Source of the DNA: Trueperaceae bacterium
GTDB lineage: Bacteria > Deinococcota > Deinococci > Deinococcales > Trueperaceae
Length of the DNA stretch: 64,000 bases
NCBI GenBank assembly: GCA_965213705.1
Contig: OZ243913.1
Location: forward strand, 1,408,001 to 1,472,000
Direction: 5' to 3'
Part shown: positions 42,992 to 57,233 of the stretch, in pieces
Position numbering within the stretch: the stretch's first letter is position 1
Layout of the letters: the number at the start of each line of letters is the position of its first letter
The notes under the pieces: model-generated
Database searches by the model: none
What the model was told of the DNA's origin: nothing
What the model saw: the letters and a program-made list of their open reading frames with translations, nothing else
Made by a program: the position numbers and the translations under genes

Positions 42992-44107
42992 TACCAAGCT
43001 GCCCAGCTGACGTCACAGTTGCCCCACAGCTTGTTGCCACCAGGGGGAGTTGGTGAGCTTTCGAAGTGCGGCTGGGTTTTGATGGTAAGTGGTGAGCACA
43101 TCTGTCAAAGCGGCTTCCAGCGCGTCGAGGGAGTCGAAGAGGGTGTTGGCAAGGGCACGCCTGAATTCGAGAAACCACCTCTCAGCGGGGTTGAGTTCGG
43201 GACTGTAAGGGGGTAAAGCTACGGGAACAATGTTGGCTGGGATGTTCAAGTTTTGCTTGATATGGGCAGGGGCGTTGTCTCTAATGAGAATGAGGGTGTC
43301 GTCGGGGTTAGTGCCGACTGAGGTGCTGAAGGAAAAGCTCGAAGCAGTCGCCGTCTAAGCGCGGCAGGTATAAGCAGAAGTCTTCGCCCGTGGCAGGTTC
43401 AACTGCAGCATAAAGCCAGGTCCATTCGTACTTACGCCTAACGTTCCAAAGCGGCCTCACCCCTCGCGGACAGTAGCGCCGTTTGTGCCAAGCAATGAGT
43501 CCAAAGCGCGCTTCGTCCATAGCCAACACCCTCACACGCTGCTTTTTGTGGTTCTGAGGTGTTTGCGGCAGTTTCCCCTTCAACGCCTCAGCGAAGTTTT
43601 TTTGAACGTTTCTTGTACTTCGGCATCTGCTTTTTCATGGCGGTAACGGCCGGTCTTGGCTTTGATGTGGTGCCGTTTAAACAAACGAAGCACGCCTGTT
43701 TCGTCTTGGTAGTGAACATCGTGCTCAGCCAGCAGCTCCCGAGCTTGTTTGTAGCTAGCTATCTCGCCTGCTCCGAGTGCCTTTTGTAGCGCTTGCCAAG
43801 CCGCTTCGTTCACCCACTCACGACGCCCCCGCTCAGAAACGCGATTCTCCAGTAGCTCACCGAGTCCGCCCGAGCGGTAAGCGTTCAGCCAGCGGTGACA
43901 CTGCCTATAGCTGTAATTCAACTCAGCTGCTGCCCCCAAACTTCTGCAACGCCCGCTCTTTAGCAGTCGCAACATCTTGACACGCTGGTTCAGGTGACTG
44001 TAACGGTGCTGCTTCTCCAGCTCTAGTAGCTCAGTCTCGCTTTCCCCTATGACTTCTTGATAATTCAGGCGCATGAGCTACTATGACACGAAACGGGCAG
44101 GATGGTA
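42992..44107 (-). mobile_element. IS630-family insertion sequence (1116 bp)
   Basis: Imperfect terminal IRs TACCAAGCTGCCC / TACCATCCTGCCC (18 of 27 nt match), flanked by TA at 42990-42991 and 44108-44109. Confidence 0.88.
43013..44074 (-). pseudogene. IS630 transposase with a programmed -1 frameshift plus an inactivating 1-nt insertion
   Basis: HTH orfA 43580-44074; slippery TTCAAAAAAAC near 43600; DEARFG, DNAPAH and LPPYSPELNPAE motifs. CAC TAA CCC in place of CAC TAC CCC near 43309 breaks the DDE domain. Confidence 0.87.
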
Positions 44108-50372: not shown

Positions 50373-51566
50373 ATGACCATGACGCTCGACCGCCCCCAGC
50401 AAGACCTCTGGTTCGACCTGAACGCAGACCAAAAAGCCATCCTCGGCCCGCTCCGCGAGTTTTTAACTTCGGAGGTCGCCCCCGGCGCAGTTGCCCGTGA
50501 CAAAACGGGTGAATTCCCGCTCGACATTGTCAAACAGCTCGGTGACATGGGCGTGCTCGGGATGCAGGTGCCGGAGAAATATGGTGGAGCAGCCCTAGAC
50601 ACCGCGACGATGGCCCTCATCATCGAAGAAATCGCTGCGGTGGACGGCTCGCTCTGCTTAACGGTCGCCTCGCACAACTCGCTCTGCACCGGGCACATTC
50701 AAATCGCCGGCAACGAGGCGCAGTATGAACAGTGGTTGCCCGACTTAGCGAGCGGCAAAAAACTCGGCGCTTGGGGCTTGACCGAACCCGGCTCGGGCTC
50801 GGACGCGGCGGGCTTGTCGACCAAGGCCGAGGACAAGGGCGACCACTTCGTCATCAACGGCGCGAAGTCGTTTATCACCCAGGGGACGGTCGGCGGCACC
50901 TACGTCGTCGTCGCCCGCACCGACGCGCCGCGGGAGGGCAAGTCCAAGGCTGACGGCATCAGCGCGTTCGTCTTTGACGGCGAAGCGCAAGGTTTGGTGC
51001 GCGGCAAGCCGGAGGAAAAGCTCGGGCTGCACAGCTCGGACACCACGCCGCTGACCTTTGAAAACCTGGAAGTTCCCGCTGCGAACCTGCTCGGCGAGCG
51101 CGGCGACGGCTTCAAAGACGTGATGGACGTGTTGAACGGCGGGCGCATAGGCATCGGCGCGATGGGCATCGGACTCGGCCGCGGAGCCTTGGAGATTGCC
51201 GCGAAGTACGCCCTCGAGCGCGAACAGTTCAACAAACCTATCGCCACCAACCAGGGTATCAGCTTCAAAATCGCCGAGATGGCGCTCGAGCTGGAAGCCG
51301 CCCGGATGCTCGTCCTCAAAGCCGCCGCCCTGAAAGACGCCGGCCGCGACTTCGCGCTGGCCGCCTCGATGGCGAAGCTGAAAGGCTCGGTCGCCGGGGT
51401 GCAGGCTTGCGACTACGCGATTCAGATTTTGGGCGGCTACGGCTACATCAAAGACTATCAAGTCGAGCGCATGTGGCGCGACGCGCGGCTGACCCGCATC
51501 GGCGAGGGCACGGACGAGGTGCAGCACATGATTATCTCGAGGGCGTACCTGAGCCAGTTCCGCTGA
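50373..51566 (+). CDS. acyl-CoA dehydrogenase
   Basis: WGLTEPGSGSDA, GRIGIGA, REQF, QILGGYGY, RIGEGTDEVQ. Confidence 0.95.
   Translation: MTMTLDRPQQDLWFDLNADQKAILGPLREFLTSEVAPGAVARDKTGEFPLDIVKQLGDMGVLGMQVPEKYGGAALDTATMALIIEEIAAVDGSLCLTVASHNSLCTGHIQIAGNEAQYEQWLPDLASGKKLGAWGLTEPGSGSDAAGLSTKAEDKGDHFVINGAKSFITQGTVGGTYVVVARTDAPREGKSKADGISAFVFDGEAQGLVRGKPEEKLGLHSSDTTPLTFENLEVPAANLLGERGDGFKDVMDVLNGGRIGIGAMGIGLGRGALEIAAKYALEREQFNKPIATNQGISFKIAEMALELEAARMLVLKAAALKDAGRDFALAASMAKLKGSVAGVQACDYAIQILGGYGYIKDYQVERMWRDARLTRIGEGTDEVQHMIISRAYLSQFR
51532..51557 (+). repeat. direct repeat, left copy (3' end of the acyl-CoA dehydrogenase gene)
   Basis: ttatctcgagggcgtacctgagccag, identical to 52188-52213. Confidence 0.95.
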
Positions 51567-51637
51567 GCGCTCGCGTGCGCCGGATTGAAATGCCCGACAG
51601 AAATCGCTCGGCATCATCACCTTCGGAGGTGACGATT

Positions 51638-51862
51638 GTGAAACGAGAACAAGTCTTGCAGCGTGACCCGGACGTGCTCGGTGGTACGGCTGTCTTTGCA
51701 GGCACACGCGTTCCTGTCCAAACGCTCATGGACTATCTCAAAGCCGGTGAGACGTTGGAAGATTTCCTCGACGGTTTTCCCAGTGTCAGCCGTATGCAAG
51801 CGGAAGCCTTTTTGCAACTCGCTCTGGAATCGGCCATAGGTGAGAATGCGCGTGCTGCTTGA
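51638..51862 (+). CDS. DUF433 family antitoxin
   Basis: DPDVLGGTAVFAGTRVPV..L.DYL..G; GGAGG RBS. Confidence 0.9.
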   Translation: MKREQVLQRDPDVLGGTAVFAGTRVPVQTLMDYLKAGETLEDFLDGFPSVSRMQAEAFLQLALESAIGENARAA

Positions 51863-52169
51863 TGAGAATATAGACCGGCGGCTGCGCAGGCTGTTCGACC
51901 TCGAGCACGAAGTCGTAAGTGTCGCAGAACACGGCTGGAGTGGCACGAAGAATGGCGACCTGCTTCGCCTTGCAGAGCAAGAATTTGATGCGTTGGTGAC
52001 GATGGACAAAAACATCCAATACCAGCAGCAGTTGGCGAATTTCGATTTGGTAGTCGTGCTGATTACGGCCTGGAGCAACAGGAGACAGGCTGTAGCGCCT
52101 GTCATGCCGGAGGTAAACCGAGCGTTGCGAAAGGGAAAGAAAGGGGAGTTGCAGGTAGTGGCGGCATGA
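51846..52169 (+). CDS. DUF5615 family PIN-like toxin
   Basis: MRVLLDENI, GWSGTKNGDLL, LVTMDKN..YQQ; overlaps the antitoxin. Confidence 0.88.
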   Translation: MRVLLDENIDRRLRRLFDLEHEVVSVAEHGWSGTKNGDLLRLAEQEFDALVTMDKNIQYQQQLANFDLVVVLITAWSNRRQAVAPVMPEVNRALRKGKKGELQVVAA

Positions 52170-52187
52170 CACGGCAGTTGCGCGATG

Positions 52188-52213
52188 TTATCTCGAGGGC
52201 GTACCTGAGCCAG
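52188..52213 (+). repeat. direct repeat, right copy
   Basis: Identical 26-mer; similarity continues to an equivalently placed TGA at 52220-52222. Confidence 0.95.
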
Positions 52214-52224
52214 GTTTGCTGAAC

Positions 52225-52674
52225 ATGAACATCTCGAAAACTCTGAAACTATTCTTGGCGCAGTGCGGTAGTTGCACCCACTCCTTCGGGTTGCCCCTAC
52301 TGAGCGATTCAGCTTACGGCGAATTCGTCCTTAAAGCTACGGAAGGTCGCTTTGCCTATCTGTCTTTGTTTGATGAGCCCATGTGGCGGAATATCGAGAA
52401 CAGTTTGACTTTAATTCCAAGCTACAGCCAGTTATCAAAAGGTAAACAAGCTCGGGTCTTTCAGGAAGTGCTTGCAAAATGTGCTGACCAAATGAATTCG
52501 TTCGGTTCGTCTCCAATCTGCCCTGTCTGCTCTTCACGAGCTATAACTTAAGGCGACTCAACGCCCCTAGGTGACGAAGAGATTCCCGTTGCCACGCTTG
52601 CCGAATTTCTGTCCTTGTCACCTGAAAGGCAAGTCAACTACCTCGAGCAGTTTGTAGAAAAGAGCCAAATTTAA
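52225..52674 (+). pseudogene. CxxC-containing hypothetical gene with an in-frame stop
   Basis: CGSC and CPVC motifs; TAA at 52549-52551 is followed by 40 more open codons (GDSTPLG...EKSQI). Confidence 0.6.
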
Positions 52675-52747: not shown

Positions 52748-53005
52748 ATGAGAACCCTGAACTACACAACAGCACGCCAGAACCTAGCCAGCGCGATAGA
52801 CGATGTCATAGACGACCACACGCCTCTTATCATTACTAAAGGGAGCGACAAGGCCGTGGTCATGATGAGCCTGGACGACTGGAATGCTTGGCAAGAAACC
52901 ATGTACTTGCTGCGCAGCCCCGCCAACGCCGAGCGCCTGCTCGACGCCGTCCGCGATTTCGACGAAGGCAAAAACCTTGTTGTCAAAGAGTCGCTGGCTG
53001 AGTGA
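52748..53005 (+). CDS. yefM: Phd/YefM antitoxin
   Basis: YTTARQNLA..ID.V, VMMSLDDW...QETMYLLRSPANA.RL. Confidence 0.93.
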   Translation: MRTLNYTTARQNLASAIDDVIDDHTPLIITKGSDKAVVMMSLDDWNAWQETMYLLRSPANAERLLDAVRDFDEGKNLVVKESLAE

Positions 53006-53262
53006 AGTATGTCTTTCACCAAACCGCTTGGGAAGACTATCTCTTCTGGCTAGGGCAAGACAAGAAAATTCTGAAACGTATCAACCTGTTGATTAAAGAC
53101 ATTGAGCGCAGTCCTTACGCGGGAATAGGCAAGCCCGAAGGCCTCAAACATAACTTGTCGGGTTGGTTGTCGCGGCGGATTACTGACGAGCACCGCATCG
53201 TTTACCGTGTCGAGGGTGATGAACTCCATATCGCCACGTTGCGTTACCACTACTCGAGGTAA
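53002..53262 (+). CDS. yoeB: Txe/YoeB mRNA interferase toxin
   Basis: AWEDYL.W, GIGKPE.LK.NLSG..SRRIT.EHR.VY, RYHY. Confidence 0.95.
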   Translation: MKYVFHQTAWEDYLFWLGQDKKILKRINLLIKDIERSPYAGIGKPEGLKHNLSGWLSRRITDEHRIVYRVEGDELHIATLRYHYSR

Positions 53263-53304
53263 TTCCGACGTGCATCCTTGGGCGCTGCAGAGAAAAGGTT
53301 TTTA

Positions 53305-54123
53305 GTGCAATCCCCTCACCCCACCATCGCCCTGCTTACCGATTTCGGCCTTGCGGACACCTACGTCGGCGCGATGAAAGGCGTCATCGCGGGCATCGCG
53401 CCGAGTGCAAACGTCATCGCCCTGAATCATCACATCCCGCCTCAAGATGTCGCCGCGGGTGCCTACGCGCTGCTGACGAGCTACGCCGACTTTCCAAATC
53501 ACACGGTGTTTTGCTGCGTCGTCGACCCGGAAGTCGGCAGTGGCCGGGACGCGCTCGCCGCTCAGGTCACCGCGCAGGGCGACACCTATTGGTTCGTCTT
53601 TCCAGACAACGGCCTACTCACGCCGCTGTTACAGGAGGTGACGCTCGAGGCCGTCGTCAGCCTCGACAACCCGAAGTACCACCACAAAAAAGCGAGCCGC
53701 ACCTTTCACGGACGCGATATTTTCGCGCCGGTGAGCGCTCACTTGGCGAACGGAGTCGAACTTGCGGCCCTCGGCACTCACCGCGACCCGGACCGAGTGC
53801 GCCGCCTCGAATGGCCGGAAGTCGTGCCGACTGAACACGGTTTCGAGGCTCGCGTCATCCACATTGACCACTTCGGGAACCTGGTAACGAACTTGAAGGG
53901 GCGTCGGCTCGAGCCTGACACTGGCGTCTGGAAGGTCGTCTGTGACAACGTCGTGATAGACGGTATTTCCAGCACTTTCACGGATGTAGAGCTAAACCGA
54001 CCTCTAGCCTACGTCGGCAGCGCGGGGTTTCTCGAGTTGGCGATTCGCCAAGGCAACGCGGCTGCGGCTTGGGGTGTGTCTCGAGGTGAGCGGGTGCGCG
54101 TGGAGCGCTCAAACGACGGTTAG
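53305..54123 (+). CDS. SAM hydrolase / SAM-dependent halogenase family protein (DUF62)
   Basis: LLTDFG..D.YVG.MKGVI, VVDP.VGS.R, PDNGLL, TFHGRDIFAP, IDHFGN; start codon uncertain. Confidence 0.92.
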   Translation: MQSPHPTIALLTDFGLADTYVGAMKGVIAGIAPSANVIALNHHIPPQDVAAGAYALLTSYADFPNHTVFCCVVDPEVGSGRDALAAQVTAQGDTYWFVFPDNGLLTPLLQEVTLEAVVSLDNPKYHHKKASRTFHGRDIFAPVSAHLANGVELAALGTHRDPDRVRRLEWPEVVPTEHGFEARVIHIDHFGNLVTNLKGRRLEPDTGVWKVVCDNVVIDGISSTFTDVELNRPLAYVGSAGFLELAIRQGNAAAAWGVSRGERVRVERSNDG

Positions 54124-55201: not shown

Positions 55202-55390
55202 CTAAAACTTCGGCTCGAGTCCAGCTTGTTTACACATCGCGTTCGCCGTGATTCTGTCTATCGTGCGGTGACGCTTAACAGGTATCGTCTTCTCACCCTT
55301 GACATAAATAGAGTGGTCGGCACCTTCACGAAGCAAACGAAAACCGCTGTCCTCAAAATACCTCACAAGGTCACGCCGCTTGACCGACAA
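55202..55390 (-). CDS. hicA: HicA family toxin
   Basis: KRRDLV.Y....GF..LREG..H.IY, IPV.RH, ICKQ-like C-terminus. Confidence 0.88.
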   Translation of the reverse strand: MSVKRRDLVRYFEDSGFRLLREGADHSIYVKGEKTIPVKRHRTIDRITANAMCKQAGLEPKF

Positions 55391-55610
55391 GACTTGTCTC
55401 TATGGGCAGTTGTTCGATAAAGCCACCGGCCACCGGAATCTGTTTGTTTTGCTGTCGGTACGCCAAAACCATTTCTTGAAGCGCGTCTTTAAGCATAGCC
55501 CGGCAGTCCTCAATATCTTTACCCTCGCTGATAACTTCGGGCCATTCGACAATCTGGCCCATGTAGCCGGAGTCTATTTTCGTGTACTTTGCTGTGTAAC
55601 TGGTCAGCAT
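55371..55610 (-). CDS. hicB: HicB family antitoxin (short form)
   Basis: Y.G...EWP.VISEG..IE.C...L.DAL; TAGACT -10 box before the ATG. Confidence 0.88.
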   Translation of the reverse strand: MLTSYTAKYTKIDSGYMGQIVEWPEVISEGKDIEDCRAMLKDALQEMVLAYRQQNKQIPVAGGFIEQLPIETSLVGQAA

Positions 55611-55672
55611 AGGCTTAGTCTAGCACCGCCGGGACGGATATTTCATCATTTGAATAAGGTGTAATATCATCG

Positions 55673-55927
55673 TCAAGCAGCTACATCGTCCGTCAGCGCT
55701 CGAGCCTCTAAATAAAGGGTGTCCGGCCCGAAATCCTGTTCGTGCGGCCACTGAACGCCGCCGAAAAAAGGTCTGACCTGTTTGAAGTAGGCCAGACTTT
55801 GCAACTCTTCAAAAACACCTTTGTCCAGATAAGGACGCACGTCGAACACCTTCTCTTCTCCGTTGTCAAAGGATAAAAACAAGTTGAAATTATCTCGCGC
55901 GGCAACTTCAATTACTTTTGGGCTCAT
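55673..55927 (-). CDS. DUF2442 family protein (putative antitoxin)
   Basis: L.L.FDNGE.K.FDV.PYL.KGVF..L, V.WP..QD..PDTLY. Confidence 0.88.
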   Translation of the reverse strand: MSPKVIEVAARDNFNLFLSFDNGEEKVFDVRPYLDKGVFEELQSLAYFKQVRPFFGGVQWPHEQDFGPDTLYLEARALTDDVAA

Positions 55928-55936
55928 GACGTCTCC

Positions 55937-56206
55937 TTACTTTAAAGGGTCGATTTTGAAAACTTGTTCGCCGTTTACGGCCAATTTCCAGTTCGCCATG
56001 AGTTCGTCACGGTGAATTTCAATCCAGGCTTGAAGAAGCTTCATTTTGGACCTCGGCAAGCCCCCTGCCAAAACTTCTCCGTCAGGAATCGAGAGGATAA
56101 CTTCATCATCTTGATACTGCGCGTGAACGTGGGGTCTGTGGTGCTTTTTGTCGTCAAAGTAATACATCAGCACAATCACGCCGTAAAACATTGAGATGAC
56201 CGGCAC
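55937..56206 (-). CDS. DUF4160 family protein (putative toxin)
   Basis: MPVISMFYG.IV.MY..D...H..PH.HA, W.E.H..EL..NW; GTG start 1 nt after the ispH stop. Confidence 0.9.
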   Translation of the reverse strand: MPVISMFYGVIVLMYYFDDKKHHRPHVHAQYQDDEVILSIPDGEVLAGGLPRSKMKLLQAWIEIHRDELMANWKLAVNGEQVFKIDPLK

Positions 56207-56207
56207 C

Positions 56208-57233
56208 TCAGCCGCTCGTAACCGGCGCAGGCACCCGCTTCGCCGGGCGGAAGACGATGTTCTCCCACTCGCCCTCTTCGATAGTTTGCAAATTCGGATT
56301 GCGCGCTTCAAAAAAGGCGCAAATCTCCTGCACGAGGTCGTCCGGCGTGCTCGCCGCCGAGGTCACGCCGACGCTTTTCACGTCCTCCAACCAAGCTTCT
56401 TGAACGTCCTCGACCGTTTCGACTCGGCGGCTGTTGCCCATCAGGTCTTGGGCCAGCTCGACCAGGCGCATCCCGTTCGAGGAGTAGTCCGAAGAGACCA
56501 CCAAAAACAAGTCCACCAGCGGCGCGATTTCTTTGACCGCGTCCTGCCGGTTTTTCGTCGCGTAGCAGAGGTCGTCGGAGGGCGGCGTGTGGAGCTTGGG
56601 AAAACGCTCTCGCAGAATATCAATCGTCTTTTGTACGTCGTCCACACTCAAGGTCGTCTGGGTGAGCACCACGACCTTGTCCGGGTCGGGGACGGTGACG
56701 GTGTAGGGGTCGGCCAAATCGGGGTCGTGCCTGCGGTTGCCGACGACGCTCACGACGGTGGTCGCGTGGGGCGCTTCGCCGCGCGTGCCGATGACTTCCT
56801 GGTGGCGGCTCGAGTCGCCAATCAATAAGACGTGATAGCCCTCGCGCACGTATTTTTTGGCTTCGGTGTGAACTTTTGTGACGAGCGGGCAAGTCGCGTC
56901 GATGGTGGCGAGGCCGAGCTGCGCCGCCCGGTTGCGCACCGCCGGGCTGACGCCGTGGGCGGAGAAGACGACGGTGTCGGAAAGTTTGCCGTTCTGGGCG
57001 TTTACCGCTTCCTCCACACCTTTCAATTCGTCCAAATCCTCGACGAAGTGAACGCCGTGCGACGCTTCCAGACGCTCAATCACAGTGTCGTTGTGGACGA
57101 TAGCGTGGTAGACGCTCAGGTCGCCCTCATTACTTTCCGCCATCTCCTGCGCGGTTTTCTCGACCGCCTCAATCGCCATCACCACACCCGCGCAGTAGCC
57201 GCGCGGTTTGGCGAGGTAAAGCTTTTCAATCAT
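56208..57233 (-). CDS. ispH: 4-hydroxy-3-methylbut-2-enyl diphosphate reductase
   Basis: [44 protein letters not shown]. Confidence 0.97.

Follow-up and report, generated by a model that had tools for sequence, protein, structure and literature searches.

The window, that is, the whole 64,000-nucleotide stretch of DNA analyzed, contains an intact acyl-CoA dehydrogenase gene followed by a small two-gene cassette, a second copy of the gene's own 3' end and further accessory DNA (Table 1). The acyl-CoA dehydrogenase, which shares 96% amino acid identity with its orthologue in a genome of the same genus (G001), is the insertion target and likely the homology anchor of the event discussed here. 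The cassette is an overlapping operon in which the DUF433 gene, with a GTG start and GGAGG upstream at 51625-51629, precedes the PIN-like gene. This is the composition of the PIN-COG2442 pairing, which has been predicted to be a type II toxin-antitoxin (TA) system (PMC2701414), and by its gene content we regard the cassette as a predicted system of that type. Searches of the PDB gave a weak match of the DUF433 protein to 2ga1 (E 0.003) and no match for the predicted DUF5615 toxin, and a scan for promoters and terminators revealed no excess.

Low-GC accessory DNA extends beyond the second copy of the gene end, through an ORF and a YefM-YoeB pair, and then gives way to a core gene. The Atlas look-alikes of the ORF are unnamed clusters with a low recognition score. 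The YefM-YoeB pair is missing from the corresponding site of G001, and the region of the SAM hydroxide adenosyltransferase gene on its right shows 84% DNA identity to that genome. Two CTCGAG words, at 52642-52647 and 53253-53258, enclose YefM-YoeB without any longer repeat, the second of them 2 bases before the YoeB stop.

Table 1. Genes and features at the duplicated gene end (positions in the window).
Feature	Position	Strand	Basis or remark
Host acyl-CoA dehydrogenase gene, 397 aa, intact	50373..51566	+	Pfam PF00441/PF02771/PF02770
Repeat copy 1, working 3' end of the acyl-CoA dehydrogenase gene	51532..51566	+	exact 26-mer 51532-51557, CTCGAG 51536-51541
Inserted unit of 656 bp, bounds set by the empty allele	51562..52217	.	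joint possibly up to 5 bases further on
DUF433 (COG2442) predicted antitoxin, 74 aa	51638..51862	+	PF04255, E 9e-17
DUF5615 / PIN-like (PIN_10) predicted toxin, 107 aa	51846..52169	+	PF18480 (E 1e-9), PF18478; overlaps the DUF433 stop
Repeat copy 2, stranded 3' end of the acyl-CoA dehydrogenase gene	52188..52222	+	sequence repeat, order in the empty allele
Low-GC ORF, 107 aa from ATG or 111 from TTG	52228..52551	+	no family in Pfam and NCBIfam scans
YefM-YoeB pair, second TA module of the variable hotspot	52748..53262	+	PF02604, PF06769, TIGR01552, TIGR02116
SAM hydroxide adenosyltransferase gene, conserved right flank	53278..54123	+	PF01887/PF20257

The initial annotation had described an exact 26-mer at 51532-51557 and again at 52188-52213, and both positions hold, with a spacing of 656 bases. 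On alignment the match grows to 32 of 35 bases (3 mismatches) and spans both TGA codons, and a search of the 4.25-Mb genome (G000) that tolerated up to 5 mismatches gave no copy besides these two. Translation returns the readings reported there, IISRAYLSQFR for copy 1 and VISRAYLSQVC for copy 2, each followed by its stop. We also agree that DUF433 and DUF5615 are the only families between the copies, according to a Pfam scan, that no long inverted repeat lies at the cassette bounds, and that there is no recombinase at the cassette: in a search limited to PF00589 and PF00239, tyrosine recombinase matches come no nearer than ~73 kb and resolvase matches no nearer than ~270 kb. The genome as a whole holds 6 tyrosine-recombinase matches above the cut-off and 3 resolvase matches. 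The CTCGAG that had been pointed out inside the repeat is present, and is at the same time the hyper-abundant palindrome of the genome and a word enriched at such junctions; in copy 2 (52192-52197) the inner junction lies 4 bases upstream of it.

Assembly artefact can be rejected as the origin of the duplication. Each copy is crossed by contigs of runs X1 and X2, possibly from the source sample, that show 0 differences; in run X3, from another sample, a contig with 76 differences in 686 bases has the cassette together with copy 2. The earlier proposal to look for empty or differently loaded sites led to alleles of both kinds. The empty allele comes from another sample (X5), where a contig with a depth of 5.4, and with 3 and 5 differences in its two 72-base sides, joins 51561 to 52218; the intact gene end is there followed directly by the ORF that in the window follows copy 2. 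Since exactly 656 bp are skipped, we are dealing with a genuine insertion in a variable hotspot. Other alleles are loaded differently: G001 has the gene and then the cassette at 91% identity with a shortened DUF5615 gene, no copy 2, and a CBS-domain gene; in runs X3 and X4 the cassette and copy 2 precede different DNA; loose contig ends show at least 4 further sequences after the stop of the gene; and one X1/X2 contig tracks the cassette to 52194, in the middle of CTCGAG, diverges there without copy 2 and rejoins at 53311. From the empty, filled and otherwise loaded alleles it follows that the site is a variable hotspot, that the 656-bp unit is an insertion, and that copy 2 stands at the original position. 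Thus the earlier reading of an insertion at a gene terminus without a recombinase in cis is upheld, whereas the circle, the single crossover and the recombinase acting in trans that went with it are hypothetical. Pattern scans for more alleles gave 0 matches in metagenome contigs and 1 in genome contigs, the G001 locus, and no downstream tail repeat was present at 29 other loci from the search that gave the G001 orthologue and in three wider cuts of them (best scores 7-13, compared with 26 here).

The genome scan for other duplicated gene ends that the initial annotation had called for shows that this locus has company. Self-comparison of G000 yielded 427 direct-repeat matches spaced 150-6000 bases, of which 28 pairs, with three arrays, dense repeat regions and matches longer than 260 bases omitted from the count, satisfied a rule requiring copies 300-1600 bases apart and not both in long genes, an interval GC of at most 0.62 and only small genes inside. 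A host gene contributes its 3' or 5' end as one of the copies in 17 pairs, whose repeats measure 30-198 bases and are spaced 656-1269 bp. TA families (ParE, Phd-PIN, PIN_3, MazE-PIN, DUF433, HicAB, PemK and RES) occur in 19 of the 23 pairs submitted to the Pfam scan, leaving 4 without. The targets of the 17 gene-end repeats are unrelated and have no consensus; they share at most 14 bases, mostly around CTCGAG, which argues against a single att or recombinase system. On their outer side the repeats tend to end at a stop codon or a gene start; their inner limits are variable. The same layout is found in other genera, with repeats of 146 bases in G024, 46 in G034, 38 in G018 and 183 in G014. When compared at 9 other loci, G001 has cassette and repeat in common with G000 at 5 and a single copy at 4. 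One pair (L048) adjoins an integrase.

Polarizing the copies against the sister genome G001, which has a single gene end, gave a mixed picture: this end is closer in sequence to the distal copy at the FadB locus (10 vs 5 sites) and to the gene copy at two other loci (15 vs 3 and 23 vs 6). At a locus with a 584-aa acyl-CoA dehydrogenase the distal copy is diverged over its first 40 bases, identical over the next 41 and G001-like at the last sites. Repeat mismatches fall on the three codon positions as 41/30/67 (n = 138, with 2 of 15 rows read in the wrong ORF), a pattern which cannot separate a donor allele from decay; the third-position share of 67/138 is the expectation for one neutral and one constrained copy. 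Likely the youngest scar of the genome is a locus (L045:2551-3587; G000 1978850/1979795) at which an HTH gene and a HicAB pair are enclosed by a perfect 92-base repeat, duplicated from the 5' end of an RsmD-like gene. Elsewhere an HTH-PemK pair sits, with no integrase, between a tRNA-like gene, which we took by eye to be a tRNA, and a 51-base copy of its 3' half (L042:2513-3556; G000 1007212/1008205).

The three arrays (L040:2800-7100, at G000 683.3-687.6 kb; L050:2480-4560; L052:2540-6500) consist of 4-6 small modules each, mostly TA pairs, split by locus-specific spacers that usually hold two CTCGAG words 30-45 bases apart. No integrase lies within the flanks fetched. G004 (L139) and G001 (L148) have related arrays whose sets of cassettes are not the same. 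The spacers do not form a dispersed repeat family, as each profile matched only its own array and the related G001 and G004 arrays, nor are they attC-like RNAs, the Rfam matches being tRNAs only. The genome is in general very rich in TA genes, with 51 PIN and 16 DUF433 matches.

No hexamer of G000 is more over-represented than CTCGAG (8,868 copies), which exceeds its reversed control in 31/31 genomes of the family. The excess goes beyond amino-acid needs in the manner of HIP1, given that among Leu-Glu pairs CTC-GAG is found at 2.7 times expectation, CTC-GAA at 0.23 and CTG-GAG at 0.33 times. At the other extreme the genome strongly avoids GATC (observed/expected 0.10), and TGGCCA, CCATGG and GAGCTC are avoided too.

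The enrichment of CTCGAG at repeat junctions is real. The word lies at a repeat boundary in 11 of the 28 pairs as opposed to 13 of 229 in-gene control pairs (null mean 1.6-1.9, maximum 8 in 5,000 draws), and no hexamer outscored it there. At the inner junctions of the gene-end cases, counted without the tRNA case, one pair whose orientation was unclear and the pairs lying wholly in intergenic DNA, exact CTCGAG occurs in 7/17 vs 4.6% of gene-end windows and CTCGAG within one mismatch in 11/17 vs a null of 16%. These figures call for some caution, since the choice of the 17 cases and of the interval scored was made with the alignments already in view, and since members of one array do not count as independent pairs. 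Where long G000-G001 alignments end in the ordinary way, the word is present in 40 of 424 cases (~9%), significantly less often than at the inner junctions (Fisher p 0.0009). Outside G000 it was found at 12 of 29 non-orthologous pairs vs 7 of 86 controls, a tally without one G004 pair that was a repeat and without five G001 pairs whose orthologues are among the G000 loci; the DUF433 loci of other genera had it in 0 of 7. Given how common CTCGAG is, 7.5-14% of the 8-10-base matches that gene ends share by chance with intergenic DNA include it. Under nulls of such passive microhomology the junction enrichment keeps p values of 0.0001-0.006, or 0.02 for the harshest, and a CTCGAG-anchored search without an alignment threshold returned a modest excess (16 of 43,414 pairs vs 11 of 110,794 for six control words). 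The join can do without the palindrome, given that 10 of the 17 inner junctions lack the exact word. The junction counts suggest an active role for it.

No enzyme tracking CTCGAG emerged among the nucleases and the conserved C5, D12, N6/N4 and Eco57I methyltransferases of the genomes searched. A XhoI-family nuclease is present in one of five genomes, G024, where the gene is broken, and had no match in G000, G001, G004 and G011. In G024 (L078:35-2099) it lies in two frames and adjoins a methyltransferase, whose best match in G000 reaches 23%. No C5, D12 or N6/N4 methyltransferase family is common to G000, G001, G004 and G024. An orphan 559-aa Eco57I-type adenine methyltransferase adjoining dnaG (L224:3936-5615) has matches in 14 of 24 genomes of the family (identity 42-58%, some with stops); its occurrence does not track CTCGAG, with matches in 0/4 genomes of family f5, which is the richest in the word. 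ComEC and DprA are encoded in 3/3 genomes searched, and also in 10-11 of 14 control genomes.

We propose, with a probability of roughly 55%, that the cassette was inserted by homology-anchored capture of transforming DNA, the second join being made at a short match with CTCGAG in the gene tail. DNA from a relative would enter by natural transformation, and the incoming linear molecule would pair by means of RecA through the body of the acyl-CoA dehydrogenase gene. Its far end would then be rejoined inside the recipient's gene tail at a short match containing CTCGAG, either through a nick or through preferred annealing, with no loss of sequence and with the old tail ending up stranded downstream of the cassette. 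The unit could later reach other alleles by ordinary recombination, with the gene as the long arm and the repeat as the short arm. TA cargo would survive between these deletion-prone repeats because its loss would be toxic, and the dominance of TA modules among the cargo may reflect this survival of addictive modules.

Several observations agree with homology-anchored capture. Outer repeat ends that lie where host homology stops, together with variable inner ends, fit a linear fragment anchored by the gene and joined in its tail; the geometry fits one homologous anchor and one microhomology join, and the X1/X2 contig diverges at 52194. The cassette and copy 2 in front of two different loads fit spread via the gene and the short repeat, and at FadB a sister end nearer the distal copy is as expected if the present gene end is donor-derived. 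Against the proposal stand the two loci at which G001 is nearer the gene copy, as well as the lack of an enzyme tracking CTCGAG among those searched. Furthermore, homology-facilitated illegitimate recombination usually ends in deletion of recipient DNA, whereas here that DNA is duplicated.

The geometry observed would also result if a circle with the gene tail and the TA pair, excised in the donor between repeats or between two CTCGAG words, had integrated through a single crossover by RecA, and the mosaic distal copy at the 584-aa acyl-CoA dehydrogenase fits an internal crossover of this kind. Amplification and release of repeat-flanked modules has been hypothesized for restriction-modification (RM) genes, in a passage of PMC2853133 that calls the release unproven. 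We consider the circle unlikely, as repeats of 26-35 bases are at or below the ~30-base RecA threshold quoted in PMC2884548, as no back-joint occurs in the contigs of 7 runs (an insensitive search, since contigs lose rare forms), and as the origin of the first duplication is left without explanation by the circle itself. Quite unlikely, in our view, is a true target duplication with the same resulting geometry, in which staggered nicks or a double-strand break near CTCGAG were filled in around foreign DNA and one of two copies identical at birth decayed. The outer repeat ends speak against it by lying at stops and gene starts, where donor-recipient homology ends, and not at a fixed distance, as do the end replacement at FadB and the absence of a XhoI-type nuclease from G000 and G001. 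Nonetheless, double-strand breakage has been suggested for the same architecture around RM genes (PMC2853133, in the part compared), and the perfect 92-base duplication, the fit of the codon-position pattern to decay of one copy and the gene copy favored at 2 of 3 polarized loci are all in its favor.

Integrative elements regenerate the 3' end of their target gene as attL/attR. The cassette resembles them insofar as the gene is intact and a stranded end copy lies behind the insert, but it has no integrase in or beside it, no common att core, many unrelated targets in its sister loci and the size of a single operon. If it were the remnant of an integrase-bearing island that shrank to the TA pair, or had been moved by a distant recombinase in trans, the recombinase matches elsewhere in G000 could supply the enzyme, and the one like locus that duplicates a tRNA-like 3' end would have a typical integrase target. 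TA islets that remain after loss of mobility genes are indeed described in the part of PMC13617665 considered. This reading, already weakened, is very unlikely when set against 17 targets that are unrelated, differ in length, include 5' as well as 3' gene ends and have no core in common beyond CTCGAG, spacings that cluster at one operon (656-1269 bp), and the absence of a larger or integrase-bearing allele among those of G001 and the 7 runs.

Insertion with long target duplication, the nearest known counterpart of our locus, was reportedly first described in H. pylori. For RM genes the repeats often lie across start or stop codons and the mechanism is unknown, according to the part of Furuta et al. 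(2010, PMC2853133) compared here. Our locus is similar to these RM cases in having an addiction-type module without a mobility gene, unique direct repeats of variable length and an empty single-copy site in a relative (the X5 allele, which lacks the 656 bp), with an insert of two genes that is well within their limit of 20 kb without another mobile element. Their hosts are mostly competent species (PMC2853133). In contrast, the cargo is not an RM system, for DUF433 and DUF5615 take its place as a predicted type II TA pair; ~20 cases occur in one chromosome; and the repeat (26 bases exact, 35 with 3 mismatches) is at the 30-base cut-off of PMC2853133, the range over the 17 gene-end loci being 30-198. 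Moreover, the inner junctions are enriched for one hyper-abundant palindrome, and none is reported in the parts of that paper compared. In homology-facilitated illegitimate recombination, as far as described in the part of PMC2884548 considered, one homologous anchor is likewise combined with one non-homologous join, and competence genes are present here; the join at our locus instead falls back inside the anchor and duplicates host DNA, and a preferred palindrome has no place in that description.

As for the palindrome itself, HIP1 (GCGATCGC) of cyanobacteria has been associated with site-specific recombination and with more efficient transformation (PMC4390886, PMC5861425, PMC9239245, bioRxiv 10.1101/2024.09.10.611283; parts of each). 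CTCGAG is likewise a hyper-abundant palindrome preferred over synonymous codon pairs; it differs in word and phylum, in that no cognate methyltransferase was found, and in being tied to natural cassette junctions rather than plasmid assays. PMC13617665, as far as compared, traces TA islets to entry with a transposon or integrase and loss of the mobility genes, and proposes homologous spread at flanking core genes. Small TA-only inserts, high-turnover spots and the lack of mobility genes are common to both, whereas the entry scar here is a duplicated host gene end, and the term "direct repeat" is absent from the main text of that paper. Within a literature search confined largely to open-access papers without their supplements, we came across no description of CTCGAG as an iterated palindrome of these bacteria, nor of TA cassettes with palindrome-bounded target duplications.

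We conclude that the feature is real, a capture of TA modules in which gene ends are duplicated and the join often falls at a HIP-like palindrome; the known RM architecture is here combined with a new cargo and a palindrome. On the junction sequences, CTCGAG likely marks the splice point of incoming DNA without an integrase. A bolder version, which we hold only tentatively and think rather doubtful, is that the Deinococcales have in CTCGAG their counterpart of HIP1, a joining site that is actively processed. A host enzyme would nick it during transformation so that modules could be captured at any gene end without deletion, and repeated capture would build TA arrays that resemble integrons but have no integrase, their spacers being bounded by CTCGAG. 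How TA systems enter chromosomes without mobility genes, and what role hyper-abundant palindromes play, are open questions that are both touched here. Since there is a clean filled/empty pair of 656 bp, a palindrome 4 bases from the junction and ~20 parallel cases, the mechanism is directly testable, which applies to insertion with long target duplication as well as to the recombination role of HIP-like words. Even if the palindrome were passive, a known and poorly explained architecture of RM genes would be extended to TA pairs.

Elsewhere in the window, HicAB and DUF4160/DUF2442 pairs lie at 55202-56311 between dus and an ispH-like gene, an interval of which part holds other small genes in G001, with no flanking repeat up to 56000. 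At 43013-44074 there are three consecutive minus-strand ORFs, which by eye we take to be a split IS630-type transposase.
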